DNA from: a bacterium
GTDB taxonomy: Bacteria; Electryoneota; Electryoneia; Electryoneales; Electryoneaceae
Assembly (NCBI GenBank): GCA_963669175.1
Contig: OY769902.1
Span: forward strand, 3,584,001 to 3,648,000
DNA: 64,000 nt
Direction: 5' to 3'
Shown piece after piece: positions 11,888 through 53,776 of the stretch. The position numbers and the translations under genes were made by a program. The notes under the pieces were generated by a model. The model saw only the letters and a list, made by a program, of their open reading frames with translations, searched no databases and was not told the origin of the DNA. Position 1 is the stretch's first letter. Every line of letters begins with the position of its first letter.

Positions 11888-14800
11888 TTACTTCAGAAGG
11901 ACTACCTTCCGTGTCTGGTTGATCGGTCCAGCCTGGAAATGAATGAAGTAGACACCGCTGGCCATATCGGCAGCGTTGAAATAAATCTCGTGACTTCCCG
12001 CAGTATACTGGCGATTTGAAAGCATGCCAACCTGCTGTCCGACTACATTATAGATCGCAGCCCGGACGTTTGTAGTATGTGGCAGGGTAAACGGAACAAT
12101 CAGTTCAGCGTTGAACGGGTTCGGATAAGGATTCGCCAGTTCCCACGTCAACGGTTGTTCCACCCCATGCTCATCAATCACCTGATCATCAATGGTAAGA
12201 CTGACTTCAACAAGGTTATCTGTATACTCACAGGCGTTATTATCAATTTGCAGGAACACGGTATAGGTAGCATCATCGATCATGTGCGCTCCAGCCAGGG
12301 AAACCTGGATTTCTGCGGTTGAATCCGGCGCCAGTTCACCTGTTGCATCCGCAATAGTAATCCATGGGATATTATCACCCAGGGACCACATCCGCAGGTA
12401 CTGTGTATCCGCATCATCGTAAATGGTTGCATACATCCATACCAAAGGATTCCACCATCCCTCAATCAATCCACCACGTGGGGTAAATCCACTGGTTTCT
12501 TCGGTCAATTCATATACTTCTTCCGCATTGCCATTATCAGGATTCATTTTCACGAAAGTGATCACTGAATCCCCGGTATCCCTGCAGATGAACATCAAGT
12601 TGTAGCCATCCGCGTCATTTGGGTTCCATGCGCCGCCACGAGGGGCAAATGTCCGCGTATGTGTAAAAGCAGTCTCACCATTGCGAGCAATTCCGCGCAC
12701 ATGCGTGGATACATCGCCCATCCAGAACAGGTCACCAACGGGATCATAAATCAGGTACCGGGCAGCTAATACCGGGACTTCCCAGGAATTGACAACCTCG
12801 ACATTCTCGCCGTTTACCTGCATTTGGAAAATGATGCCGGAATCAACACCGTACAGGTATTCTCCATCCCATGTCAGATCCTGGAAACCGATAGCGGAAC
12901 GGTTCGCTTCCGGAACAGGCTGTTCCGTCTCGAACAACAGTGCGCCTTGTGAATCGAACTTGTACAGGAGGTTTGCTTCATTTGCATTATCCGGGTTCGA
13001 TCCGCTGACCCAGAAGCCGCTTCCATCCCAGGTTAAACCGTAAAAATGCTCGGTTTCAGGAATCAATCGTTTACTGAATACGCATTCCCACAGATCATCA
13101 AGATCATCGCCTTCACCGAAAACTGGACCACGTCCATTGACCAGTTCGTCGGGCGGTTGGAATAAAATATGCGCATTATACGAAAGCGTACCATTACCCG
13201 TATTTGTGAAACTGACCGGAATAGTAACCTGGTCATTTTTAGCCAGAACTGTTTCAACCAGATCAGTATCCAGTTCAAGCTCGGGATGTGTCATGCCAAC
13301 ATCAACAAGAATTGGTTCTGCACTAACTTCGATCATCGTTGATGTGGCCTCGTTGTAACAATCGGCCGAAGCTTCAATCCAGTATTGCCCAGGCGGTACG
13401 TTCGTAAACATGTATTCGCCATTAGCATCCGAAAAGGTAAGCATGTTCAGCGGCAGGAGTCGCAGTTCCACATTCTCGATAACCTCATCTTCATCCTCAA
13501 CCTGGTATACTGTACCAGCGACACTGCCATATACTGAAGCAATTGTCGTGATGAAGATCGCGGAATTGGAGCCCATATTATGCATGGTTGTCGGACCGTC
13601 ATAATAGAATGCCAATTCCAGCCCATCGGACTGGGTATGGTTTTCAATGCCTGTCGTCCACCATAAAATATCCGCGCTGGTACCTGATGTGGCCCCAGAG
13701 GTATGATTCATCGACTCATACTGGAACATGATCTGGTTGTCATTGGTCGCAGTCGGATACGAATCCGTGTCGTAGAAAATCACCTCAAATGTACAGGGAT
13801 TGTTTCCCAGGTAGTCACGAACCCGATACCACTCAATGATATAGCGTCCACTGTCTTCATCGTAGTAATGGAATACTCCGCCCCCGTTGGACAGTACACG
13901 TTCATCCCAGTACGGCGCAACAATCGCGTCGGGCCCAAGCGGCGAAGGAATGTTGTAGTTTCGGCTTACCGGCACATCTGCCTGGCCCCCCATAGCAACC
14001 CATCCATTACTGCAAATAGTCATCACGTCGTATGACAAGCCATAGTACTGGATATCAAACGGCAGATCTACAACAACGGCATCGTCCTGGTTGTCGCCAT
14101 AGTCTGACAATGCCAGGTTTGTTCCTGTGTAGTCATTATTCTGCGCAGCGGGATTGATCTCAATCCAATCGAAATCCGGCGCAAGATCATACCCCGTATC
14201 TGAGCTTTCAAAAGCCCAGTAGCCGTAATTATCCGGGCCGGTCGGATCGTTACTCCCGGGATTACCCAGCGCAATCGTAAAATACACGGAATCGGAAAAA
14301 CCTTCGTTCGTTTCAAAGTACAACATCATGGGTGACTCGAAGCCTTCATAGGCGTCCTCAGCAACGCTGACTTCGAAGTTACCGCTGGAATAACTCCCGA
14401 CAGGAATATTCTGGAATGTTGCAGTGGGGTCTGTTACGGTTACCCAACTATTCAAACTGACAAGACTTCCGGTCGCATTTCCGGTATTGTCACTTCCTTC
14501 ATTCCTTATGTAGAGTGCGAAATCCTGTGTATCTCCCGGATCCACAACTCCAGCATCGTGCATCATGAATTTCATATCAGGCGCAGCAAGAGTAAAACGT
14601 CTGACATCTTCAATATCCGCCTGGTCAGCATCGATATCAAACATGACGGCAGAAACCCACTCATTCCGCGCGTCTCCCTCTACCTCGAACAGTAAGTAGC
14701 CTGCCGCAATAACCGAACTGTGTGAACCAAGTGTGGCTATGGTTGCTGTTCCACCCTGGGGTGTCAGGAAAGCATCATCACTATCAGCAGTGATGGAAAG

Positions 14801-16930
14801 ATTGGTAAAGCTGGTATTGGAATAGTTATGCAATTGCACTTGCATGGCAACCGTTTCACCGGCATCCAAGACACCATCACCATCCCCGGAACTGCCATTC
14901 TGTCCGTTATCAAAGATGGTCACATTTTGTACATGCACATTGTTGTTTTGCAGGCCATAATTCACTGTCAGTCTGAATGGTTCGTATCCCTGGGCGGTAA
15001 CCGTCAGGATAGCGTCCCCTTCCTCGTCAATCGGCGTGTCGAGGATGGCGTATCCGCTGGCATCAGTTTCACCACGCGCAATGAAATCAAGGTTTTCGTT
15101 GTTGTCTTCTTTATAGAAGGTAACCCACGCATCTTTTACTGGATGACCGCCATCATCACGAACAGTAACCTCATAGGCTGTCGTACCTTCATTGATGGAA
15201 CTGGCGGCCGTGACATCCAATTCCTGCGGAACACCAATCCAGGTCCAGACAGTTGGATCCCCCATCAGATTATACCATTCAACAAAGTTATCAAGACTGG
15301 CATCATTACCGTCAAAACACTGATGCATGTAATACTGTGAGGCATAGTAATGGTCACCCAACTGGCGATTCTGCATGACAAACATGCTATAGGCAGCGCC
15401 ACCGCTACAAACATTGTTGAATCGTGGTTTTGTGTACCCCGTGGCGGTCCCCATCGCACCGATACCACCACGCGGAATGCTCGCTGTACCGGCACGTATG
15501 TATGCTTCCGTGATCGCATAATGTGAATGCCAGGTACCTGTATAGCAGGTTACATCGATCACAACCGGTGTCTTATAGTCATTCTGGAGATCTTCAATCT
15601 GTTCTGTACTAAGGCCGCAGTTGATGAAACCACGGCAACCATAAAAACTGACACCTTCATTAATTCGCTGAATACTGCGATTGTTAACATTGCCGCTTCC
15701 CCACGGGGAAACCCAGGCTGTGTCAACCTGTGTATATCCCGCTTGCAGCATGATCCTTCTCTGGTATCGGCCAGTATACACGGTCCCGATGCCGGATTCG
15801 TTCGAAGCCACGGCAATCTGGGCACGTGTATACCATTCCGTGTCGTCATCCATATAGGGATCACGTTCGTAACAGATCACTTTGTTTACGTAAGTCGCAA
15901 GCTCAACAACTGTTTCAACGCTGATACGTCCGATGCCGCAATCAATCATAATGTCATCACCAGACAGACAGGCATACATATAGTCGCCATACCCCTCTGA
16001 AGGTGGTACACGCCAGTTATAGTTTGTCGCATCACCTACAATAACGATATAGTCAAACTTCTCTTCGCTATTATCCCAGCGAGTCTGTAGTACCTCTTTA
16101 ATCGTATAGGCGCTTCCCATATAAGCATTGTCATCACTCAATACATCAATTTCCCACCCTTTCTGCATTTTCCATTCAATCCAGTCCTCCATATATTCTT
16201 CAATGGTATCGTTGTTTCGCATAACCAGTTGCACCGAGCCACGATACAGCTCGTACTGGTCAAGTTCGTCTTCGTCCCAGTCAAGCAAAAGCCTGTAAAA
16301 AGGCAGGAAGTTCTTACTCAGTTTGGTCGGCCATTGGGGAATTGTATTCCGGTTATCTGTTCCTTCGTAACGGATATCCACATCAAGATTGTGGTATACC
16401 CGCACTTCGCGCCGGGCAGGATTTACCTGGACTGGATATGTCACCAGGTTACACACACGGAAAGCACGCATGACAGCAGGTTCTGTCGTTTCAGCAAGTT
16501 GTCCCGGGAACCAGGCATCAACTGGTTCGGTCAATTCCAGTAATTCGTCCAGGGCGCCGGCGCCGGCAAAAGCTGCGTATTCCACGTCGGTGAAAGTCTC
16601 ATATTCGGCATTGAGGACTTCAACAACAACCCCCGCATTGGGTGGGATTCGGAATAGGTTCCCTACACGCGGAACAACCGGCATACCAGGCTCTTCAATA
16701 GCGCCAGTATTAAAGAATTCAGCAATTGCCAGTTGATCGGAAACGCCCGCAGAATTCCACATTGGACTTTCGACAGCCAGGCTAAAGCGCATACCGTCAG
16801 CTCGCACCTGTTTTTCAAGCACTTTAACGGGGGACGCCTGTTGCGCTGCTAGGTTTTGACTGGCTATCGTCTGTACGGGGATAATGAACAGCAGGATCAG
16901 AAGAATCGGGACTAATGCATAGGTTCTCAT
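11888..16930 (-). CDS. Large secreted C25 (gingipain-like) peptidase-family protein with Ig-like/propeller domains and T9SS-like C-terminal domain
   Basis: Signal peptide; propeptide; WKMQKGW, YIVIVGD, IGRIS, YERDP, DVTC and NLMGDP motifs; C-terminal YPNPFN...ASGVYF...KVVLLK. Confidence 0.85.
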   Translation of the reverse strand: MRTYALVPILLILLFIIPVQTIASQNLAAQQASPVKVLEKQVRADGMRFSLAVESPMWNSAGVSDQLAIAEFFNTGAIEEPGMPVVPRVGNLFRIPPNAGVVVEVLNAEYETFTDVEYAAFAGAGALDELLELTEPVDAWFPGQLAETTEPAVMRAFRVCNLVTYPVQVNPARREVRVYHNLDVDIRYEGTDNRNTIPQWPTKLSKNFLPFYRLLLDWDEDELDQYELYRGSVQLVMRNNDTIEEYMEDWIEWKMQKGWEIDVLSDDNAYMGSAYTIKEVLQTRWDNSEEKFDYIVIVGDATNYNWRVPPSEGYGDYMYACLSGDDIMIDCGIGRISVETVVELATYVNKVICYERDPYMDDDTEWYTRAQIAVASNESGIGTVYTGRYQRRIMLQAGYTQVDTAWVSPWGSGNVNNRSIQRINEGVSFYGCRGFINCGLSTEQIEDLQNDYKTPVVIDVTCYTGTWHSHYAITEAYIRAGTASIPRGGIGAMGTATGYTKPRFNNVCSGGAAYSMFVMQNRQLGDHYYASQYYMHQCFDGNDASLDNFVEWYNLMGDPTVWTWIGVPQELDVTAASSINEGTTAYEVTVRDDGGHPVKDAWVTFYKEDNNENLDFIARGETDASGYAILDTPIDEEGDAILTVTAQGYEPFRLTVNYGLQNNNVHVQNVTIFDNGQNGSSGDGDGVLDAGETVAMQVQLHNYSNTSFTNLSITADSDDAFLTPQGGTATIATLGSHSSVIAAGYLLFEVEGDARNEWVSAVMFDIDADQADIEDVRRFTLAAPDMKFMMHDAGVVDPGDTQDFALYIRNEGSDNTGNATGSLVSLNSWVTVTDPTATFQNIPVGSYSSGNFEVSVAEDAYEGFESPMMLYFETNEGFSDSVYFTIALGNPGSNDPTGPDNYGYWAFESSDTGYDLAPDFDWIEINPAAQNNDYTGTNLALSDYGDNQDDAVVVDLPFDIQYYGLSYDVMTICSNGWVAMGGQADVPVSRNYNIPSPLGPDAIVAPYWDERVLSNGGGVFHYYDEDSGRYIIEWYRVRDYLGNNPCTFEVIFYDTDSYPTATNDNQIMFQYESMNHTSGATSGTSADILWWTTGIENHTQSDGLELAFYYDGPTTMHNMGSNSAIFITTIASVYGSVAGTVYQVEDEDEVIENVELRLLPLNMLTFSDANGEYMFTNVPPGQYWIEASADCYNEATSTMIEVSAEPILVDVGMTHPELELDTDLVETVLAKNDQVTIPVSFTNTGNGTLSYNAHILFQPPDELVNGRGPVFGEGDDLDDLWECVFSKRLIPETEHFYGLTWDGSGFWVSGSNPDNANEANLLYKFDSQGALLFETEQPVPEANRSAIGFQDLTWDGEYLYGVDSGIIFQMQVNGENVEVVNSWEVPVLAARYLIYDPVGDLFWMGDVSTHVRGIARNGETAFTHTRTFAPRGGAWNPNDADGYNLMFICRDTGDSVITFVKMNPDNGNAEEVYELTEETSGFTPRGGLIEGWWNPLVWMYATIYDDADTQYLRMWSLGDNIPWITIADATGELAPDSTAEIQVSLAGAHMIDDATYTVFLQIDNNACEYTDNLVEVSLTIDDQVIDEHGVEQPLTWELANPYPNPFNAELIVPFTLPHTTNVRAAIYNVVGQQVGMLSNRQYTAGSHEIYFNAADMASGVYFIHFQAGPINQTRKVVLLK

Positions 16931-17190
16931 CTTGTCTCCCTTTAGCAAGCAAACCGTGCTACCGACGTTGGTATCGCAGAGCTTTTAGAACTTGGATATT
17001 GTAGAAGGAAGCGTCAGTCACCTGAGGATTGTCAGGTTTAACTGGCTCAACACCTCAAACTTTATCAAACTATAAAAAAAAAAAACAACATTTCAATCCT
17101 GAAAAGGAAAAAAGTGATTATTTTCATGTTCATGGAGACGGTTCAATACGACTGGGAAAAAGCGCTGACATGAACAGACAAGGTGAGAAG

Positions 17191-43697: not shown

Positions 43698-44857
43698 TGC
43701 CATTTTAGATCAAGTTAACTCGTTTATCGCGATGGTCTGACTGACCTTTCAGCTTGTGTTTGTTTCGGTATCGCAGATAAGCCTGGATAGCTTGGCCCTG
43801 TTCTTGATGGTCCATGAAGGTTCGTCCTCGTAGCGCGAATTTTTTCAATGCGGCGAAGTGAGCTTCGATGCGGTTCAGCCATGATGCATAGGTCGGCGTG
43901 AAGACCAGCGTGACCCGGTTTCGTTTGGCCCATTGTCTGATTTCTGCTTTTTTATGCGAGCCACGGTTGTCGAGGATGATGTAGAGCCGGACAGTGGACG
44001 GATAACGTTTCCGAATGTTTTTGAAGAACGCCAACACCTCTGGCCACCGCTGGTTTGGACGTTGCCAGCCCCACAATTGATCACTGTGGATGTCATACGC
44101 TGCCAGCAGATAGCGCGTGCCATGGGTACGCGTATAGGTAGCCGGCAGACGGACGGGTTGCTTGTGAGGATGCCAGCTCGCACCCGCGTGGGGCCGGATC
44201 TCCAGCGGCCCGAACTCGTCAAAGCAGATCACGCGCCGGTTTGCCTTCGGCGGCGCGTCATAGAGACGTCGGATGCGTTTTTTTTTCTGTCAAACTCGGG
44301 GTCCGGAGACTGTTTCCATGTCTTACTCTGCTGATAGCTGATCTTATTCTTGTGCAGCAACCAGCGCAGGTGCGGCAGGCTGATCGATTCGATGATGCCT
44401 TCTGCGACCAGATAATCGCGAAGCTTCTCCAGGGACCATTGGCCGAAGGGTAAGCCGAGATGGTCTGGCGGCGTAACAACAACGTCAACGATCTGCTTCT
44501 GGACAGCAGCATCGAACTTGAGCGGCTTCTGGCCTTTGTACTGACTGCCAACACAGGAAAGACCCTGTTCATTGAAAGCATGAACGATCTTGCGGATGTA
44601 ACTGGCATGCCCCATCCGTTGCTGCTGAAGCTGCACAGGGGACAGGCCGGTATCTGTCGCCAACAAAATCATCGCACGGCGACGGGCTACGGGATCAGGA
44701 CTACGATCACGAATCCGTTGAAGGGAATGACCTTCATCGACTGTCAAAGAACGAAGCTTCACTGGGGTAGACATCAGAACCTCCTTGTTAACCTACCCCT
44801 TATACGCACTACTTTCAAAAACGACTCAACACTCAGACTTGATCTAAACTGGCACTA
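43695..44857 (-). mobile_element. Complete IS630-family element
   Basis: IRs TAGTGCCA(T/G)TTTAGATCAAGT (20/21 match); TA duplicated at 43695-43696 and 44856-44857. Confidence 0.9.
43705..44774 (-). CDS. IS630 transposase split over two frames (HTH part 44229-44774; DDE part 43705-44232)
   Basis: WSLEKL HTH; FDE, ILDN...H, PTYASWLNRIE DDE motifs; A9 slippery run near 44278-44286 (minus strand). Confidence 0.88.
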
Positions 44858-45547: not shown

Positions 45548-45579
45548 CCAAAAAGCCGGCCCGAAGGCCGGCTTTTTGG
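45548..45579. terminator. Bidirectional intrinsic terminator
   Basis: CCAAAAAGCCGGCC-CGAA-GGCCGGCTTTTTGG perfect hairpin. Confidence 0.85.
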
Positions 45580-46141
45580 AGGTCGGAAAATCGGCGTCGA
45601 GGGGAAACGCCGAAGGCGAACTTGCGTGGGGATCGCCACACTTCGGGAACCGTATCTTTTTCAATGCAATCCCTAGCAAGCAGTGCATGTAAAACTATGG
45701 AAGGCTTCCTGCTTCCAGAGGCGCTTCAGTGCCGTTCTCACAATCAGGGTGGGAAGCCCGTACAAAGTGAAGTATGCCTTGAAACCGTCTTAAAACCGTG
45801 CTTGTAAACCGTGCCAGCAATCAAATCAAGAAACCGTGCCAGTCGTCAGTGCAGGTAACCGTGCTAGTAGTCAAATCTCGAAATCGTAAGTTCTTCAGTG
45901 CATGTTACCGTGCCAGTAGCAGTGCTGGTAGATCGTGCAAGTAAACCGTACGGGAAACCGTGCATGTAGTCCGTACTAAAAGCATGAGAACGACGTGACT
46001 TGTTCTGGACCCGAAATCAAAGAAATCGTGCTATGTATCACCAACCGGGTCGCTGAAACCGTGCTAAGTTGATCGTGCCCTTTTCCCAGCCAACGCTCCA
46101 AGGAAGCCTTCCAAATATTCAAAGATCAATCGCAAGCTCTG
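45548..46141 (-). ncRNA. Putative ~590-nt sigma54-dependent repeat-rich non-coding RNA (unclassified)
   Basis: Promoter, 13-bp closing stem, about 20 GCAC(GG/GA/TG)-type repeats and terminator; no credible ORF. Confidence 0.6.
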
Positions 46142-46152
46142 CACATGGTTTA

Positions 46153-46168
46153 TGCAACCATCATGCCA
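46153..46168 (-). promoter_or_regulatory. sigma54 (-24/-12) promoter
   Basis: TGGCATG-ATGG-TTGCA on minus strand, exact GG-N10-GC spacing. Confidence 0.72.
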
Positions 46169-46612
46169 AGAAATCATCGACTGGGAGACTGAAAACAGGA
46201 AAGGACAAATTCATTGACAATTAAAGACTTAGATGCCATTCTTTCGTTTATTGACTTTCAGGTCAAGAAAATTAACCATGCATCGTCAGAACAGGCTGTG
46301 CATATTTTGCATCAACTATCAAACTGTTTGCACAACACTGCACAAATAATTTGACAATCAGTGAGTCATTGCACCTGCAATGGTGTTTTCTGAGCTGCGC
46401 GCTTTGCCGCAAGACAAGGCGCATTCCCAAATCATAGCAGGGTATTTTAAAGGAATGGAACGACGTCACGAACGATGCGGTACGCACCCTTCGGGCTTGT
46501 CACGAGGCTGCTGTCTTCCGTGTTTATCTCGTTTAAGTAATCCGTTATATCTGCATCTAATCGTCTTTGCGGCCAACTCGCCCTTACCCCACGATCCATG
46601 TGAATCGGTCCA

Positions 46613-47407
46613 CTAAAACCTGAGTTGCAAAGAAATACCGGGACGGATTCCCATACCTGTTTCGAGCAGAGTAGGCTCAATAACCGTTTGCGTTTCCAGT
46701 TCAGGCGGCGTAAAGAAGGCATCCAGGACATTGACTACCCAGACAGTACCGAGTGCTATACCCACGTAATTCCGCATATGGACGGCGTTTTTATACTCAT
46801 CGTATATCCCGGAAAGGGCGTCTGGATTATGACTGTTGTGGTAATCATCATCCAGACGGTTCACTTCAGACTGTGCTACGCCCAAGCCAACAATCAAGAC
46901 TCCTGTAATACCTATATAGGTCCATCCCCTCGTCTTCTGCCCTTTGTAGAGCTGCCCCAATCCGGGGAAGAACAAGCTACGCCTGGCGCCACCGTTTCGC
47001 AGCGCGCAAGCCATCAGCATTTCGTCTGTAGAATGAAAGCGTTGCTGCCCTAGCGCATTAAAGTCATCACGCGCCTGGTTGAATACTGCAAGGATCTTGG
47101 GCGAGGTTAATGTTGGATCAACCCTCAAGCGTGGATTCAGGCTTAACGCATTAATAAACTGCTCTTTGCCTGCTTCACGGTCCCCCCTGGCAACGGAGAT
47201 ATAGGCCAGGTACCTGTGCAATTCTGCCAGGTCAATCTCTGACAGAGATGAAGACCTGCTTACATGGCGCAGGGCCACAAGCTCAGCTTCATCAAGCATT
47301 CCCTGATCGTAAAGGTTCTTTACTTCATTGAGCGGGTCGATCGATGTTTCCTGTGCAAAAACAGGGACTGCCAACAAAAGGACGATCAACAACCTGTATC
47401 GCATCAT
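46613..47407 (-). CDS. Secreted TPR-like hypothetical protein with C-terminal membrane region
   Basis: Signal peptide (VFA), TPR-like helices, RSLFFPGLGQLYKG motif; overlaps fixX stop. Confidence 0.75.
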   Translation of the reverse strand: MMRYRLLIVLLLAVPVFAQETSIDPLNEVKNLYDQGMLDEAELVALRHVSRSSSLSEIDLAELHRYLAYISVARGDREAGKEQFINALSLNPRLRVDPTLTSPKILAVFNQARDDFNALGQQRFHSTDEMLMACALRNGGARRSLFFPGLGQLYKGQKTRGWTYIGITGVLIVGLGVAQSEVNRLDDDYHNSHNPDALSGIYDEYKNAVHMRNYVGIALGTVWVVNVLDAFFTPPELETQTVIEPTLLETGMGIRPGISLQLRF

Positions 47408-47700
47408 CCGTACCTGTATTTAATCCCTTTCCCGCCCACCGGATAAAACCAGTGAACGTATTCCGGCGACGTTACGTGACAAGTACCACATTCAACACAG
47501 TTTTCATGATTAACGATACATTCCCCGGTATTGGGATCTTCTTCGTATACCTTCGCCGGGCAGACATAAGTAATAGGACGTGGATGCCGTGGGTCAGCCT
47601 TGTATTTCTCCTGGTCAACGCGGATATGGCTGGCTTTATCCCAATTGTACTGGTTCAGACCAAGTTTATCTTCGATGGTTACCGGATTTTCTTTACTCAT
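47404..47700 (-). CDS. fixX: FixX-like ferredoxin
   Basis: SHI, CPAKVY, CVECGTC, YPVGGKGIKYRYG. Confidence 0.88.
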   Translation of the reverse strand: MSKENPVTIEDKLGLNQYNWDKASHIRVDQEKYKADPRHPRPITYVCPAKVYEEDPNTGECIVNHENCVECGTCHVTSPEYVHWFYPVGGKGIKYRYG

Positions 47701-49010
47701 CGCAGCACCCTCCCGGCTTTGAACATATCCACAGCCATACGCCAATAACCGATTTCTTCTTTAACGCGCTTCAGGATTGCATCTTCCACATCCTGTTTGG
47801 GCGTCTCGTCTATGGTGAAGTAGTCCTGGATAACTTCTGAGACAAATGTTGGATACTGTTTCAGGTAATGTGGGAATTTGTTGAAGAAATCGGGCATCTT
47901 TCTGAATTTGAACATATCCTTGAGGATAAAGGAATTCTCCATCTTGTCCCGATAATGCGCTACCGCTTCCATCGTATTCAGTTCATGCCCATGTTCTTTT
48001 GCTTCGATCAGCGTTTCCGCCGCCAGAATACCACTTCCCATGGCAAGGTTGGTGCCTTCATGGTACAGGCTGGCATTGATCAGACCGGCAGTATCGCCAA
48101 CCAGCATCAGGCCGGGCATGGCAAAATGCGGCAGGTGATTGTACCCGTAGTCAGGAATCATGTGCGCCAGGTACTCAACCGATTCAGCGCCTTCCAGCAT
48201 CTTGCGGATGGTTGGATGCTTCTTGAATCCTTCAAGGAAATCATTCAGGGTTTGCTTTGAAGCAATCAGTTCCTTGATGGTAAGGCCCAACCCGATCGAG
48301 ACGGTATCTTCATTAGTATAGACGAATCCCATGCCGAAGCGACCTTTCACGACATCGCCGAAATACTCCATGGCGACGCCTTCCTTGCCCTCAAGCATGA
48401 ACCTGTCTTCGATTTTTTCTTTGGGGAGACTAAAAACTTCCTTCACATTGGCGATCATGTGCGTTTGCGGCAATACCGGCGCCATTAATCCGGCCTGACG
48501 CGCCAGGAATGCGTGTACACCTTCAGCAGAGATGACAATTTTAGCCCTGATCTCGTCACCGCCCGGTTCCGTCTTGACGCCAACAACCCTGTCATCCTCA
48601 ATCAACAGTTCGCTGACCATCATCTCCGGGATAACATTCACGCCAAGCGCTTCCGCCTGGCCCGCGAACCACTGATCAAACCTGCCACGAAGCGCTGTCA
48701 CTGTATGGTTATATGGTTTATCACGCCAGGGCGCGACCTTTACATCCAGCGCAATTTCAGAGTCTTCGGACAACATGCCGAAACGGCGACGGGTTACAGA
48801 CCGTTCCAGGGGAGCTTCTTCCCAGGTATCGGGAAGCAGTTTCAAGAGTTGGTGAGTAAAGAGAATTCCGCCGTACACATTTTTGGAACCAGGGTATTCC
48901 CCACGTTCCAAAACCATAATTTCTTCAAAGCCAGCTTGTGCCAGACGGATAGCGGCTGCAATACCTGCAGGCCCCGCACCAATAATGACAACCTCAAATT
49001 CTTCATCCAT
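47697..49010 (-). CDS. fixC: FixC-like FAD-dependent ETF-quinone oxidoreductase
   Basis: GAGPAG, ERGEYPGSKNVYGG, APLER, FDQW, AHMIP, VGDTAG. Confidence 0.9.
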   Translation of the reverse strand: MDEEFEVVIIGAGPAGIAAAIRLAQAGFEEIMVLERGEYPGSKNVYGGILFTHQLLKLLPDTWEEAPLERSVTRRRFGMLSEDSEIALDVKVAPWRDKPYNHTVTALRGRFDQWFAGQAEALGVNVIPEMMVSELLIEDDRVVGVKTEPGGDEIRAKIVISAEGVHAFLARQAGLMAPVLPQTHMIANVKEVFSLPKEKIEDRFMLEGKEGVAMEYFGDVVKGRFGMGFVYTNEDTVSIGLGLTIKELIASKQTLNDFLEGFKKHPTIRKMLEGAESVEYLAHMIPDYGYNHLPHFAMPGLMLVGDTAGLINASLYHEGTNLAMGSGILAAETLIEAKEHGHELNTMEAVAHYRDKMENSFILKDMFKFRKMPDFFNKFPHYLKQYPTFVSEVIQDYFTIDETPKQDVEDAILKRVKEEIGYWRMAVDMFKAGRVLR

Positions 49011-49240: not shown

Positions 49241-50458
49241 ATGACTCGAAATACGGGATTGATATATCCACGATTCAAAATAGTTTTCATTCTGTTACTT
49301 GTTCTGATACAACAGGTAAGCGCTGAGGAAAATGTAATTCTCATCATTATTGATGGCGCCAGGTATAGTGAGACTTTTGGAGACGACTCTCGTTCGCTGA
49401 TTCCTCGCATGAATGAGATCGCCACAACAGGAGCCATTGTTGATTCCTTCTACAACGACGGCTTCACCTACACATCCAGGGCAATCCCGGCAATCTGGTG
49501 CGGTGCATGGACTGAAGTCCGTGATACAGTATACAATGGACAATCAACACAGTACACTACCCTCCCCACCGTTTTCGAATACTTCCAGAAACAGGCGAAT
49601 CCAAACCAGGGGCAGAACTATTATGTTCTGAAAGAACTCACGTCGTTATGGTTACCCAGTTTTCATCCTGATTATGGCCCTGCATACTGGCCGGACTTTC
49701 ACAGTGTCGGCGCCACAGATGAAGATGTGTGTACTGAAGCCCTGGAAGTTTTGCAGTACTACAGACCACGCTTTTCCCTGATCTATTTTGCGGATGTCGA
49801 CCACGGTGGTCATTCCGGCAACTGGGAAGAATACACAACACAGATCAGGGAAGCTGATTCACTGGTAGGCGTTATCTGGGATATGGTACAAAACGATCCC
49901 CACTATGCCGGAAATTCAACTCTTTTGGTTACAAACGATCACGGTCGTCATGATGATGAACATGGCGGATTTACCGGTCATGGCTGCGGTTGCGAAGGTT
50001 GCCGGAGAATCATGCTGCTGACAGCGGGCGCATCGGTGAGATCTGGATATGTGTCTCCTGAAAACCGTACACTAAGGGATGTAGCGGTGACAGCCTGCGC
50101 ACGTCTTGGAGTTGATGCTGAGCTTGCAACCGGAACATACATGGACGACTTGTTCTATAGTAGTGATTCTCCTGAATCTTTCCCCATACAACCGGTCACA
50201 CTGGCACTGGATCACCCTTTCCCCAATCCGTTTAATCCTTCCACTACGCTTCGCTTCAGCATTCTGGAGGATGGCTATACCAGTCTTTCAATTTACAATA
50301 TGCAGGGCCAACTTGTTGATAAAGTAACCGCTGGATGGTTTCAGGCAGGGAGCTATGTATTCACCTGGCAGCCTGCTGAACTGGCTACCGGCCAGTACTT
50401 GATCCGCTTGTTGCAGAACGAGCAGACAGTAAACCGAAAAGTCATCCTGCTCAGATAA
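49241..50458 (+). CDS. Alkaline phosphatase/sulfatase-superfamily protein with T9SS-like C-terminal domain
   Basis: IIIDGAR, DHGGH, TNDHG metal ligands; FPNPFNPSTT...KVILLR. Confidence 0.8.
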   Translation: MTRNTGLIYPRFKIVFILLLVLIQQVSAEENVILIIIDGARYSETFGDDSRSLIPRMNEIATTGAIVDSFYNDGFTYTSRAIPAIWCGAWTEVRDTVYNGQSTQYTTLPTVFEYFQKQANPNQGQNYYVLKELTSLWLPSFHPDYGPAYWPDFHSVGATDEDVCTEALEVLQYYRPRFSLIYFADVDHGGHSGNWEEYTTQIREADSLVGVIWDMVQNDPHYAGNSTLLVTNDHGRHDDEHGGFTGHGCGCEGCRRIMLLTAGASVRSGYVSPENRTLRDVAVTACARLGVDAELATGTYMDDLFYSSDSPESFPIQPVTLALDHPFPNPFNPSTTLRFSILEDGYTSLSIYNMQGQLVDKVTAGWFQAGSYVFTWQPAELATGQYLIRLLQNEQTVNRKVILLR

Positions 50459-50641: not shown

Positions 50642-53600
50642 ATGCATATTCAGCGCACGTGGTATAGCTGTATCCGTCCGTTTCTCCTGTTGGTATTTCT
50701 ATCTCTTTTTCTGCCAGTCGCGGGTTTGTATTCACAATCCGCTGTAATAAACCCTCCCACAAGTATTTCTCGTGAAAAAGCTGAGTTGTTCTGTGAGTTC
50801 CTCTCCCCTGTTCCGGACGCTGAATATGTTCATCGAGAAAGCAGTATCATCATTCGCCAGGGCGAAAAAATAAACACCGCTTCTATCGACAAATTCCTGA
50901 TTGAGCTTTCAGGCAGCAAGAGCGGCCAGCATGCCGGAGACCTGATCCTGGCAAAGGATCAGAAGACGCTAATCTTCACCCCCTTTTCGCCATTTCAGCC
51001 ATCAGAAACTGTAACCGTCACCATTCTCAACGGGTCAGCAACTTCCTCCGGCGTTTTCGTTCCGGCAATTTCCTACACATTCCGTGTATCTGACAATCAG
51101 GTTGATCATGTATTCAACTCCAGTGAATACGAAGAATCGGAACCTGAGAATTCAGGAAATGGCAGCGCTGGCGAGCTTGATGAGTACACTCTGCCGTTTG
51201 ATGTTCCTGAATTCGGTGTAACTGAAACAAATCATCCCGCGGAAGGATTGATGCTGATTCTCCGCAAAAGCACTACATTCAATTCACATGACTACATGGT
51301 GGGTGTGAACAATCATGGTGAGGCTGAGTTTTATTATAAGGTTGTAAAAGGCGCTGCAAACCTGGATTATCAACCAAGCGGTTTACTGAGCTGGTATGAT
51401 CCATTGCATTTGCGTTACATGCTCATGGATACAACTTTTACACTTGTAGACTCATTCGCTTGTGTGGATGGGTATGATGCTGACATGCATGACTTTCAGC
51501 ATCTTCCCAATGGTCACGCATTCCTGATTGCATATGACCCACAAGAAGTCGATATGAGCCAGGTTGTTCCAGGAGGGCGCGAAGAAGCGCTTGTCATTGG
51601 ATTGATCATTCAGGAACTTGATGAAGATCATAACCTCGTATTTCAATGGCGAAGCTGGGATTTTTTCGAGATTACGGATGCTTCGGACTGGATAAATCTG
51701 CGTGCAGCAACAGTTGATTACGTTCACGGCAATGCGATTTCGATAGATGAAGATGGCGCTATTCTCCTTTCCTCACGGCATATGGACGAGATCACAAAAA
51801 TCGACGGTAGCACAGGTGATCTTTTGTGGCGAATGGGGGGCAACAACAATGACTTTACCTTCCATAATGATATGTATGCGTTTTCCTGCCAACATGATAT
51901 TCGGCGGCTTCCCAACGGGAATCTCACCCTTTTCGACAATGGAAACTATCATGATCCGCCTTTTACCCGTGTAATTGAGTACCAGGTTGATGAGATTTCA
52001 CATGAAGCTTCGATTGTCTGGGAATACGTAAATCCATTGGGCTACACTTCACCTTCCATGGGCTCGATACAACGGTTGGAAAACGGAAACACACTGATTG
52101 GCTGGGGATCGAGAAATGACATGGAATCTATTCCCGAGTGGGTTGAAATAACTCCCAATGGCGCAACTGCTTTCGAAATGTGGTTCGAAGACGATAATAC
52201 TCCATATAGAATCAGGCGACACACCTGGAATGGTGTAGCAGCACGTCCCAGTATTGTAGCGCTTCCTGACGAGAATGGCGATATCGCCCTGTCATTCGGT
52301 TTCTTCGGGCACGAAGATGTCGCCATGTACTATATCTACGAAGGTAACTCGCCACATCCAGACATAATACTTGATTCCACAACATTAACCTCAATGACTA
52401 CACGCGGCGTTGATTTACTTCCCGGCGCGCATAAGTATTATACAGTATCTGCACGTTTGACAAATGGCCTGTATTCTGAAATGTCTTACGTTGAAGAATA
52501 TACTCATCCTTCGTTATTCACCTTGAATCATCCGCGAGATAACGAAACTATCGTGGACGATGTAGTTACACTTCGCTGGTATCGTAACCCGGCATATCCA
52601 GCTCATATTGCTATAAACTACCATCTTGAATACAGTACCGATCCTGACTTTTCAGAATTCTCATATATCATCACTCAGGACACCTCATTTGTGCTTGAAG
52701 AATTGGATGAGTTGCCTGATGACATTACTATTTACTGGCGAGTCTATTTCATTGACATTTTCAATAACGAGATTTGGACAATTCCAGGCAGGAACGGCTG
52801 GTCATTCTCCATTGCAATTCCTGAATCACCCGCTGAATTTCATTTACGCACACCTGAAGATGGCAGTTCACTTGGGACGCTTGAAGCAACCTTCACATGG
52901 ACTCGTTCATCCGATCCTGACCCCGACAGCGACTTGCAGTACCAGCTTGAGCTAGCCCGTGACAGTTCATTCTCGGATACCAACCTGATAGACCTGTATA
53001 CCACGCAAAGCAATTCACATGTTGTTTCCAATTTATCCTGCAATACGGAATACTGGTGGCGTGTTCTGGCAACCGATAACAATACAGACGGCACCTATTC
53101 TTCAGAGACATTCAGGTTCGGAACGGATGTGTCAGAACCGCCTTCAGCATTCATTCTGTCAACACCTCAGGATCACGACACTTTGACACTGAACAGCTCT
53201 GCTGAGATCGAATTCGTATGGTTTCAGTCAATTGATCCCAACCTGGGACAAATACCCACTTATCAATTATTTGTCCTGGCAACCATGGAGGCGCAAGATT
53301 CGTTGCTGACCATTTCAGACATTCCAGATACGATGATAGCAATTCCACTCCTGGATTCCCTGGGCCTGGAAGATCTGAAAACACCAAGGGTAATAACCTG
53401 GTGGGTTCAGGCGATTTCCTGCGGCGACACTGTACGATGCGAATCAGAATTCACTTTCCTTTTGGTCCAGAATACCGATGTCAGCTTTAATGACGATCCG
53501 AGCGTGCCCTCCGAATTTGCACTGAGCCCATTCTATCCCAATCCCTTCAATGCCGCATGTCATGCGCAAATAGCGCTTCCTGTTTCCGAGATGTTGCAGG

Positions 53601-53776
53601 TAAACGTCTATGATATACTCGGCAGGCAAGTGGCGATACTTGCATCAGGACAATACCCTGCTGGTTATCACAAACTTGAATTTCATAACAACCAGCTATC
53701 CAGCGGAATTTACTTCGTGCAAATTCAAGCCGGGACTGCGATCAACGTGGTACGCAAGGTGGTTTTACTGCGATAG
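50642..53776 (+). CDS. Arylsulfate sulfotransferase (ASST)-like protein with Ig/FN3-like domains and T9SS-like C-terminal domain
   Basis: DMHDF, DYVHGNAI, SSRH, QHDIR, FDNG, GNTLIGWG; YPNPFN...SSGIYF...KVVLLR. Confidence 0.85.
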   Translation: MHIQRTWYSCIRPFLLLVFLSLFLPVAGLYSQSAVINPPTSISREKAELFCEFLSPVPDAEYVHRESSIIIRQGEKINTASIDKFLIELSGSKSGQHAGDLILAKDQKTLIFTPFSPFQPSETVTVTILNGSATSSGVFVPAISYTFRVSDNQVDHVFNSSEYEESEPENSGNGSAGELDEYTLPFDVPEFGVTETNHPAEGLMLILRKSTTFNSHDYMVGVNNHGEAEFYYKVVKGAANLDYQPSGLLSWYDPLHLRYMLMDTTFTLVDSFACVDGYDADMHDFQHLPNGHAFLIAYDPQEVDMSQVVPGGREEALVIGLIIQELDEDHNLVFQWRSWDFFEITDASDWINLRAATVDYVHGNAISIDEDGAILLSSRHMDEITKIDGSTGDLLWRMGGNNNDFTFHNDMYAFSCQHDIRRLPNGNLTLFDNGNYHDPPFTRVIEYQVDEISHEASIVWEYVNPLGYTSPSMGSIQRLENGNTLIGWGSRNDMESIPEWVEITPNGATAFEMWFEDDNTPYRIRRHTWNGVAARPSIVALPDENGDIALSFGFFGHEDVAMYYIYEGNSPHPDIILDSTTLTSMTTRGVDLLPGAHKYYTVSARLTNGLYSEMSYVEEYTHPSLFTLNHPRDNETIVDDVVTLRWYRNPAYPAHIAINYHLEYSTDPDFSEFSYIITQDTSFVLEELDELPDDITIYWRVYFIDIFNNEIWTIPGRNGWSFSIAIPESPAEFHLRTPEDGSSLGTLEATFTWTRSSDPDPDSDLQYQLELARDSSFSDTNLIDLYTTQSNSHVVSNLSCNTEYWWRVLATDNNTDGTYSSETFRFGTDVSEPPSAFILSTPQDHDTLTLNSSAEIEFVWFQSIDPNLGQIPTYQLFVLATMEAQDSLLTISDIPDTMIAIPLLDSLGLEDLKTPRVITWWVQAISCGDTVRCESEFTFLLVQNTDVSFNDDPSVPSEFALSPFYPNPFNAACHAQIALPVSEMLQVNVYDILGRQVAILASGQYPAGYHKLEFHNNQLSSGIYFVQIQAGTAINVVRKVVLLR

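Follow-up and report, generated by a model that had tools for sequence, protein, structure and literature searches.

A conserved non-coding RNA gene with a sigma54-type promoter and a phased GCACGGUU array, possibly a multi-site decoy with a new motif

What kind of gene consists of a promoter, a terminator and, between them, a crowd of short repeated words without a credible protein? This question is raised by the interval 46168-45548 on the minus strand of a window of 64,000 nt, which is the whole stretch of DNA that was analysed and whose positions serve as coordinates here. The window belongs to genome G000 (5.45 Mb, 95.9% complete). An earlier note on this DNA had proposed a non-coding RNA gene, and the promoter, the 13-bp inverted pair, the motif copies and the hairpins with terminator which it described were all recovered on the minus strand where it had placed them. 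The sigma54 promoter reads TGGCATG-ATGG-TTGCA (46153-46168, minus strand; GG at -24, GC at -12), as seen in the sequence and in the alignment with the same-genus genome G001, and the limits of conservation in G001 predict a transcript of about 595 nt (45548-46143, minus strand). Because of the motif enrichment, its uniqueness in the genome, the sharp boundary at the start, the existence of further family members, the conservation of promoter and enhancer site and the contigs found in RNA libraries, we hold with great confidence that 46168-45548 is a real and conserved non-coding RNA gene.

The most conspicuous property of the interval (621 nt) is its content of 18 related hexamers (7 GCACGG, 3 GCACGA, 5 GCACUG and 3 GUACGG), where about 0.5 would be expected in all from the genome-wide density of each word (0.17-0.20 per kb per strand). 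GCAC occurs 15 times, compared to 2.0 +/- 1.4 across 500 shuffles (maximum 7), and GUGC does not occur in the interval at all. When 400-nt windows of the genome were compared, 10 GCACGR were counted here and 4 in the best other window, which makes this the sole such cluster in 5.45 Mb. The main array (45758-46078, minus strand) is delimited by motif counts and spacing and is composed of units of 12-13 nt. The unit in G000 has the consensus GCACGGUUU-N-C-NN and alternates with GCACUG units; a second word, UUGAUUUG, is found between some units and recurs in several genera. Tandem Repeats Finder reported periods of 11 and 50 for the array. The earlier note had listed 18 motif positions, each given as the plus-strand G that pairs with the second C of GCAC; 15 of these coincide with the counted hexamers, and the other three turned out to be partial copies (ACGGUU, ACGAUU and CACG). 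The RNA carries a phased, strand-specific GCACGGUU array.

That no credible open reading frame (ORF) is present was also borne out. The longest minus-strand ORFs of the interval comprise 65, 48, 41, 37, 33 and 30 amino acids, none of which is credible. An ORF of 154 amino acids on the plus strand has no Pfam match, and its frame is broken by 1-nt insertions or deletions relative to G001.

The copy of the RNA gene in G001 is 73% identical. Similarity starts at 46144, directly past the promoter, and stops at the terminator; upstream of the start the two genomes cannot be aligned except for the GG and GC elements of the promoter and an enhancer-like palindrome. In total, 79 genomes of the phylum (families f1-f9) were searched. 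The combination of promoter, non-coding array and, where the locus was long enough, terminator was confirmed by inspection in 19 of the 79 genomes, distributed over four families (f1, 10/16; f3, 6/16; f5, 2/9; f6, 1/24). No verified member was obtained from f2, f4, f7, f8 and f9 in this exact-pattern search. The number of 19 is a lower bound, as it is based on four exact multi-unit patterns and one BLAST search; for example, the RNA of G003 consists mostly of ACGGUU and GCACUGA and was missed by three of the four patterns. The first pattern matched 10 genomes with 0 matches of its reversed control, the second 18 genomes with 7 control matches (6 of these inside an unrelated 29-nt tandem repeat), the third 17 genomes with about 30 control matches, and the fourth 16 genomes, likewise with a control background. 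The remaining pattern matches in the phylum lie inside coding sequence and were rejected as chance. A metagenome contig (L101) is an additional member and brings the total to 20 loci; it was the only one among 80 loci examined, of at least 118 stretches, and the metagenome scan is therefore uninformative on a spread beyond the phylum.

As the earlier note had expected, no Rfam family was matched. For the window, nothing reached a gathering score or E <= 10 beyond sub-threshold terminator matches, and for the 16 homologous loci only the flanking tRNAs matched at a gathering score. The weak matches (E <= 10) were all to terminator hairpins of unrelated small RNAs, below thresholds, and were rejected as chance. 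A full-text literature search found no description of the motif or of such an RNA.

Across the family the RNA varies in length from about 280 to about 1,550 nt and the number of GCACGG copies from 2 to more than 10; the spacers vary as well, whereas the word itself is conserved across families. From 169 motif instances in 16 RNAs the family-wide unit is y-C-n-r-GCACGG-UU-u-m-C, often alternating with GCAC(U/A)(G/A). The spacings in these 16 RNAs (n=153) fall to 45% at 10-14 nt (mode 13) and to 16% at 22-27 nt, with further peaks at 24-25, 36-37 and 49-50 nt. Peaks at multiples indicate that a register of about 12.4 nt is maintained through degenerate units. In the 8,583 nt of the 16 RNAs, GCAC was counted 188 times vs 9 for GUGC, and ACGGUU 99 times vs 0 for AACCGU. 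As these complements are rare or absent, the repeated words have no pairing partner inside the RNA. The longest RNAs occur in genus g32, with 5-8 GCAC per 200 nt over 1.2-1.4 kb and no GUGC. Giant versions of the RNA were observed on the sense strand at L053 in G047 (about 1,550 nt) and L039 in G038 (about 1,160 nt), with 14-15% G, GCAC every 25-40 nt, no GUGC and an isocitrate dehydrogenase gene following; the one in G047 is built of higher-order repeats of about 120 nt.

The array is enclosed by a long-range helix. Its 5' arm UGGAAGGCUUCCU (46101-46113, minus strand) and its 3' arm AGGAAGCCUUCCA (45698-45710, minus strand) pair perfectly over 13 bp and enclose 390 nt. A helix at the homologous place was found in G000, G001, G008 and G009, with the arms at nt 29-51 of the RNA (5' arm) and 126-188 nt before its 3' end (3' arm) and an enclosed span of 157-523 nt; the same arms were seen in G003, G006 and G007. 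Over six genera the helix is kept with compensatory changes, for example two just flanking the GAAGG core (G-C to U-A, U-A to A-U), two within that core in G009 (C-G to A-U, U-A to C-G), and U-A to G-C in both G006 and G007. As G008 and G009 were misaligned at their 5' ends by MAFFT, the changes were read by eye; in the RNA as a whole, only the closing helix and the 3' hairpins show them. The length of the helix by itself is only weakly unusual (20, 6, 0 and 51 of 300 shuffles reach it in the four genomes), and the total duplex energy does not differ from shuffles. It is the homologous position together with the compensatory changes that argues for conservation, and a long-range helix round the array is a feature of this lineage. 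The global fold gave z = -1.34, and 7 of 100 shuffles folded equally well. This fold is not unusually stable, which fits a decoy-like anatomy.

A phased array gathered into one domain by a closing helix could also serve as a scaffold, on which an oligomeric or filament-forming protein is assembled into a ribonucleoprotein with a role of its own (localisation, storage or enzyme regulation). This explanation would fit the strictness of the register (about 12.4 nt), which survives missing units (peaks at 13, 24-25, 36-37 and 49-50 nt), and the giant versions of about 1.2-1.6 kb in one genus. However, such a scaffold has no known partner, the copy number varies widely (2 to more than 10), and the presence of the same word beside ribosome-binding sites of mRNAs, described below, is more simply explained by competition. 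A scaffold is therefore considered quite unlikely.

Between the closing helix and the terminator lies a 3' domain (45580-45697, minus strand), the part in which G000 and G001 resemble each other most. It contains one GCACUG (45686), one ACGGUU (45653) and an ACCUCC word (45582-45577), and two GC-rich hairpins (45637-45615 and 45613-45591, minus strand) are predicted in its fold. The intrinsic terminator follows at 45548-45579 (minus strand) as a GC-rich hairpin set between an A-run and a U-run; it is present in the predicted fold and absent from the output of a simple terminator scan. The high similarity of this domain in the two genomes would fit a regulatory RNA that acts by base-pairing, in which the 5' and 3' domains are functional, for example through a C/U-rich hairpin loop or an ACCUCC that masks Shine-Dalgarno sequences, and in which the array is a landing pad for a chaperone or a by-product. 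CCUCC is found within 130 nt of the 3' end in 7 of the 16 RNAs, compared to 3-4 of 16 for permuted words, and sigma54-dependent small RNAs such as NrsZ work by pairing, according to PMC8395346. On the other hand, it is the array word that is conserved between families and not the 3' domain, CCUCC is absent from 9 of the 16 RNAs and, as its excess over permuted words is weak, was rejected as a signal, and the complement AACCGTGC occurs 8 times near start codons, where 15.6 would be expected, with 2 occurrences in 5' intergenic stretches. Base-pairing as the main function is unlikely.

The promoter itself is kept at 20 of 20 loci, which bears out the claim of a non-coding RNA gene behind a sigma54 promoter. 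GG at -24 and GC or GT at -12 are correctly spaced at all of them, in the form TGGCAY-N5-(T)TGC/TGT (GG-N10-GC type) with a variable spacer. Upstream lies an activator region (46275-46343, minus strand) with the main palindrome ATGCAAAATATGCAC at 46312-46298 and weaker TGCA-containing sites at 46343-46328 and 46283-46275. The pattern TGCR-N5-TGCR is located 143 nt upstream of the promoter in G000, 141-145 nt in 6 genomes of f1 and 76-87 nt in f3 and f5; 17 of the 20 loci have it, vs 1 of 77 background windows of 230 nt. The activator region is presumed to be the binding site of a sigma54 enhancer-binding protein. G000 possesses one rpoN gene and about 22 strong sigma54-activator genes, none of which is near the RNA gene. 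Among 28 intergenic sigma54-like sites in G000 the enhancer palindrome occurs at this promoter only, which suggests that one activator serves chiefly this RNA, in the way that CbrB serves crcZ (PMC8395346). Further intergenic sigma54-like promoters of G000, outside the window (C1 2216764, 4005362 and 1218804), lie 440-970 nt from the next gene on the same strand and may mark more non-coding RNAs.

Sequences from the interval were also detected in public sequencing runs. Twelve runs were found, four of which were compared with the interval. A wastewater metatranscriptome (run X5) yielded a contig of 358 nt on 45759-46116 with 5 differences, and a wetland metatranscriptome from a separate study (run X6) yielded contigs on 45582-45740 and 45720-46127; the contigs from the RNA libraries of these two studies span 45582-46127 at 95-99% identity. 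In run X3, of unrecorded type and with the same organism label as the best holders, a contig of 398 nt with a depth of 118 covers 45688-46085 with 0 differences, and run X10 contained short and poorly fitting pieces only. The contigs give no strand, ends or expression level. The flanking genes are covered by none of these four runs, and the three long contigs end at 46085, 46116 and 46127; this is no evidence for RNA ends or silent neighbours.

These data also bear on the explanation that the repeats are a DNA-level element, i.e. binding sites of a DNA-binding protein such as iterons or arm-type sites, with promoter and terminator being incidental. In its favour, triple TGCACGGTTT repeats beside tRNA genes in gut contigs resemble DNA sites of mobile elements, and the word is thus able to serve at the DNA level elsewhere. 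However, promoter, enhancer site and terminator are conserved round the array in 19 genomes, the strand asymmetry of the words is complete, RNA libraries contain the stretch, compensatory changes maintain the closing helix, and the 20 loci have no mobile-element context in common. A DNA-level element is hardly credible here.

Which known systems does the RNA resemble? CrcZ of Pseudomonas (with CrcY and CrcX) is a decoy for Hfq/Crc which carries several copies of a short single-stranded motif; it sequesters the binder and relieves translational repression (PMC8395346). The RNA described here shares with CrcZ a motif in many copies and, at the level of sequence only, a promoter of the sigma54 type; it likewise has a private enhancer site. 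In contrast to CrcZ, its motif is GCACGGUU and not A-rich (0 copies of AANAANAA in the interval), an Hfq gene was not found in G000, no Rfam match was obtained, about 18 sites stand in a strict register of 12-13 nt, the organism belongs to another phylum, and no activator gene adjoins the RNA gene. CsrB, RsmY and RsmZ, the decoys for CsrA/RsmA, contain many copies of one word in numbers that vary by species and control secreted products in some hosts (same source). The many copies of one short word and the variable copy number are found here, too. Unlike in CsrB and RsmZ, GGA is not enriched (7 in the interval vs 8.3 +/- 2.5 in shuffles; A.GGA 2 vs 1.8), a CsrA gene was not found, the motifs are not predicted to lie in hairpin loops, and the promoter is of the sigma54 type. 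The promoters of CsrB and RsmZ are of the GacA/UvrY-dependent type. The claim of the earlier note that the motif is unlike both the GGA and the A-rich families thus holds.

Qrr with LuxO and GlmY with GlrR are similar in that a sigma54 promoter and a palindromic enhancer site serve essentially only small RNA genes. The LuxO site is TTGCA-N3-TGCAA, whereas the palindrome of this RNA has N5 spacing; Qrr and GlmY are moreover short base-pairing or mimic RNAs without arrays. For the strict register, the best precedent is the trp leader of Bacillus, in which the ring-shaped oligomer TRAP reads regularly spaced (G/U)AG repeats (11 triplets, 2-3 nt apart) in cis. Unlike that leader, this RNA would act in trans, and [GU]AG is not enriched in the interval (10 vs 17.3 expected). 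ToxI, a type III antitoxin, and CRISPR arrays are transcribed tandem direct repeats as well; in contrast to these, the units here are degenerate and 12-13 nt long rather than about 36 nt or of the repeat-spacer kind, and no toxin or cas gene adjoins the array.

In motif, cognate protein and covariance model the RNA falls outside the CrcZ and RsmZ families, and it has no counterpart among described RNA families. As in titrating RNAs, one short word is repeated in many copies with variable spacers and copy number. By analogy, the RNA appears, with a slight preference on our part, to be a multi-site decoy of the CrcZ/RsmZ kind with a new motif; its titrating action is what we infer from these features.

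If the array is a decoy, its word might also be expected on mRNAs. The gene calls for G000 are crude (3,759 ORF-based genes, 87% of the genome). In 5' intergenic stretches, sense GCACGGTT was found 11 times, compared to a mean of 2.8 for 1,680 words of the same composition (rank 32 of 1,680), and its antisense 2 times. Six of the 11 genes with sense GCACGGTT upstream encode a C-terminal sorting domain of type IX secretion (T9SS). By our own hidden Markov model, 327 of the 3,759 genes (8.7%) of G000 are T9SS cargo genes; an earlier cargo listing had scored 150 of 340 candidates. GCACGG is present in the 5' intergenic stretch of 19 of 293 cargo genes vs 40 of 2,535 others (p = 3e-6), and its complement in 4 of 293 vs 33 of 2,535. 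At most 50 nt before the start codon, it occurs in 13 of 327 cargo genes vs 25 of 3,432 others (odds ratio 5.6, p = 9e-6). The enrichment in 5' untranslated regions that the earlier note had proposed as a test thus exists in the sense orientation only and is concentrated on T9SS cargo genes. Upstream of cargo genes GCACGG ranks 4th of 1,225 hexamers; it is the sole GC-rich word among the 12 top-ranked words listed, and the three hexamers above it are AT-rich and promoter-like. When a Shine-Dalgarno sequence and a start codon were required downstream of GCACGG, 6 of 7 genes were cargo genes vs 23 of 257 for 59 permuted words, and with a stricter pattern 5 of 5 vs 37 of 244.

For two cargo-type genes the segment from motif to start codon is kept in G001, whereas the sequence before the motif has diverged. 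A homologue in G003 has GCACGA at the place of GCACGG, and most of the more distant homologues, which are possibly paralogues, have no motif upstream. The strict pattern was further applied to G001, G003, G006, G008 and G009; the wide pattern GCACGG-N0-35-GAGG-N3-11-RTG had given 593 matches in these five genomes, mostly in coding sequence among the 150 listed, and was unusable. Among 40 matches of the strict pattern 20 ORFs of at least 150 amino acids were found, 6 of them with a sorting domain; a control word gave 50 matches and 19 ORFs, 1 with a sorting domain (6/20 vs 1/19, one-sided Fisher p = 0.053, borderline). As far as can be judged from the sequences, the link between GCACGG and cargo genes appears strong in G000 and is suggestive only elsewhere. 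The enrichment before cargo genes fits the competition logic of a sponge. Upstream of cargo genes, TAGTTTA and AGTTTA are the most enriched words (24 vs 28 to 37 genes) and may represent a promoter element. Cargo genes within the window include those at 11888-16948 (minus strand), 49241-50458 and 50642-53776 (both plus strand).

The common occurrence of the sense word in the RNA and in mRNA leaders is also what would be expected in a triangle of sponge, small RNA and target, as known from other systems (PMC4474525). The array would then titrate another RNA, i.e. a small RNA or RNA tail with CCGUGC that also pairs with the GCACGG of the mRNAs. Against this, the intergenic occurrences of AACCGTGC gave no candidate with features of a small RNA and no antisense small RNA, although their inspection was not exhaustive. 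We also know of no sponge with about 18 sites for one small RNA, which counts against this explanation. A sponge for another RNA is regarded as very unlikely.

For a decoy that titrates a protein, the following course of events is conceivable. The sigma54 promoter would transcribe the minus-strand RNA of about 595 nt from about 46143 to 45548, probably activated by a dedicated enhancer-binding protein at the conserved upstream site of the GTGCA-N5-TGCAC type. Once induced, the array of about 18 words (GCACGGUU, GCACGA or GCACUG) would compete for a factor recognising GCACGG, most likely an RNA-binding protein and probably an oligomeric one. This factor would otherwise occupy single GCACGG sites beside the ribosome-binding sites of mRNAs, notably those of T9SS cargo, so that induction of the RNA may alter the translation or stability of these mRNAs. 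Taken further, and only tentatively, a phylum without CsrA, Hfq, ProQ and RRM regulators might run a new global post-transcriptional circuit, in which a probably oligomeric protein reads GCACGGUU at a pitch of 12-13 nt, represses the mRNAs of T9SS cargo (about 9% of the genes) and is withdrawn when a dedicated sigma54 activator induces the decoy, which reaches up to 1.5 kb in some genera.

Several observations weigh against the decoy and its proposed targets. RNAfold predicts no greater exposure of the motifs (unpaired probability 0.37 vs 0.38 for the rest), and tandem duplication by itself is able to give a register of 12-13 nt. The deepest coverage comes from X3, a run whose type is unrecorded, and DNA can be present in RNA libraries. 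The cargo class was picked after the 6 of 11 matches had been seen, so that the statistics for G000 are partly post hoc; GCACGG lies within 50 nt of the start codon in only about 4% of the cargo genes, and the replication is based on G001 (4 matches, partly orthologues) and G006 (2 matches), with none in G003, G008 and G009. Searches of G000 for CsrA (PF02599), RRM_1 (PF00076), Hfq (PF17209) and ProQ (PF04352) gave 0 matches, while control genomes were matched, and no candidate for the binder was found in G000 by the searches made. Of the binders suggested by the earlier note, a CsrA variant and an RRM protein were thus not found in G000, whereas cold-shock-domain proteins remain with 4 genes, which nothing ties to the RNA. 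A second multi-site cluster or a convincing paired site was not found elsewhere in G000, two intergenic paired sites being rejected as likely chance. Finally, among ten motif-bearing non-cargo genes no RNA-binding domain was found; they code for NAD kinase, an epimerase, TetR, ExbB, FolB and five proteins without a family.

The neighbourhood of the RNA gene is partly conserved. Upstream lies a syntenic gene (46613-47407, minus strand) for an exported membrane protein of 264 amino acids with a weak match to DUF5683 (Pfam E = 0.002, below the cut-off), and homologues of it are found directly upstream of the RNA gene at 14 of the 20 loci. As a cytoplasmic RNA binder this protein was rejected, since its signal peptide and membrane segments, as seen from the sequence, speak against such a role. 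A contig search with the protein revealed 8 distant loci without an array, and the first pattern found no array in the two-genome phylum of one distant locus. In another phylum, a promoter-like site GGCAC-N5-TTGC with TGCA-rich sites upstream was seen downstream of homologues of the membrane protein (L016 at about 3280, L017 at about 3965); at these loci it precedes a gene for a protein with BNR/Ycf48-like repeats and not an RNA. FixX-like ferredoxin and FixC-like ETF-quinone oxidoreductase genes (47404-49010, minus strand) are located upstream of the membrane-protein gene. The RNA gene lies upstream of the isocitrate dehydrogenase gene icd at 7 of the 20 loci. In the window it is followed downstream by a transposase of the IS630 type, encoded in two frames that overlap (HTH_32 followed by DDE_3; 43705-44774, minus strand); icd, the neighbour in other families, may have been displaced by it.

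Related words occur in unrelated contexts as well. Most of the other metagenome loci among the 80 examined consist of the triple TGCACGGTTT repeat, again next to tRNA genes on gut contigs, and L102 and L120 (satellite-like arrays) and L105 (iteron-like) were likewise rejected as family members. Within L090-L169 (e.g. L093 1073-1101 and L163 1472-1500), many gut contigs show a triple direct repeat GCACGGTTTC-TGCACGG(T/A)TTT-TGCACGG adjoining tRNA genes. It is followed by further TGCA-rich words and resembles the arm-type sites with which an integrated element ends; it has no relation to the RNA family. In G000, outside the window, the intergenic stretch C1:530445-530650 consists of seven tandem units of 29 nt containing TTGGCACG, the repeat that the control of the second pattern had matched; with 33 occurrences, the related GTCAGGTC belongs to the most frequent words of 5' intergenic stretches.

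To our knowledge, protein-titrating RNAs have very few binders, essentially CsrA/RsmA and Hfq/Crc, and are described almost only from Proteobacteria. Here this layout occurs with a new word in a phylum that has received little study. As the genome yielded none of the common global RNA-binding proteins, the RNA could serve as bait for finding a new RNA-binding regulator. It is visible in assemblies of wastewater and wetland metatranscriptomes and may be used as an environmental marker of its inducing condition. The substrates of T9SS are the hydrolases and surface proteins by which these bacteria feed, and, if the link to cargo genes is true, the RNA would provide the first handle on the post-transcriptional control of this large set of substrates in such bacteria.

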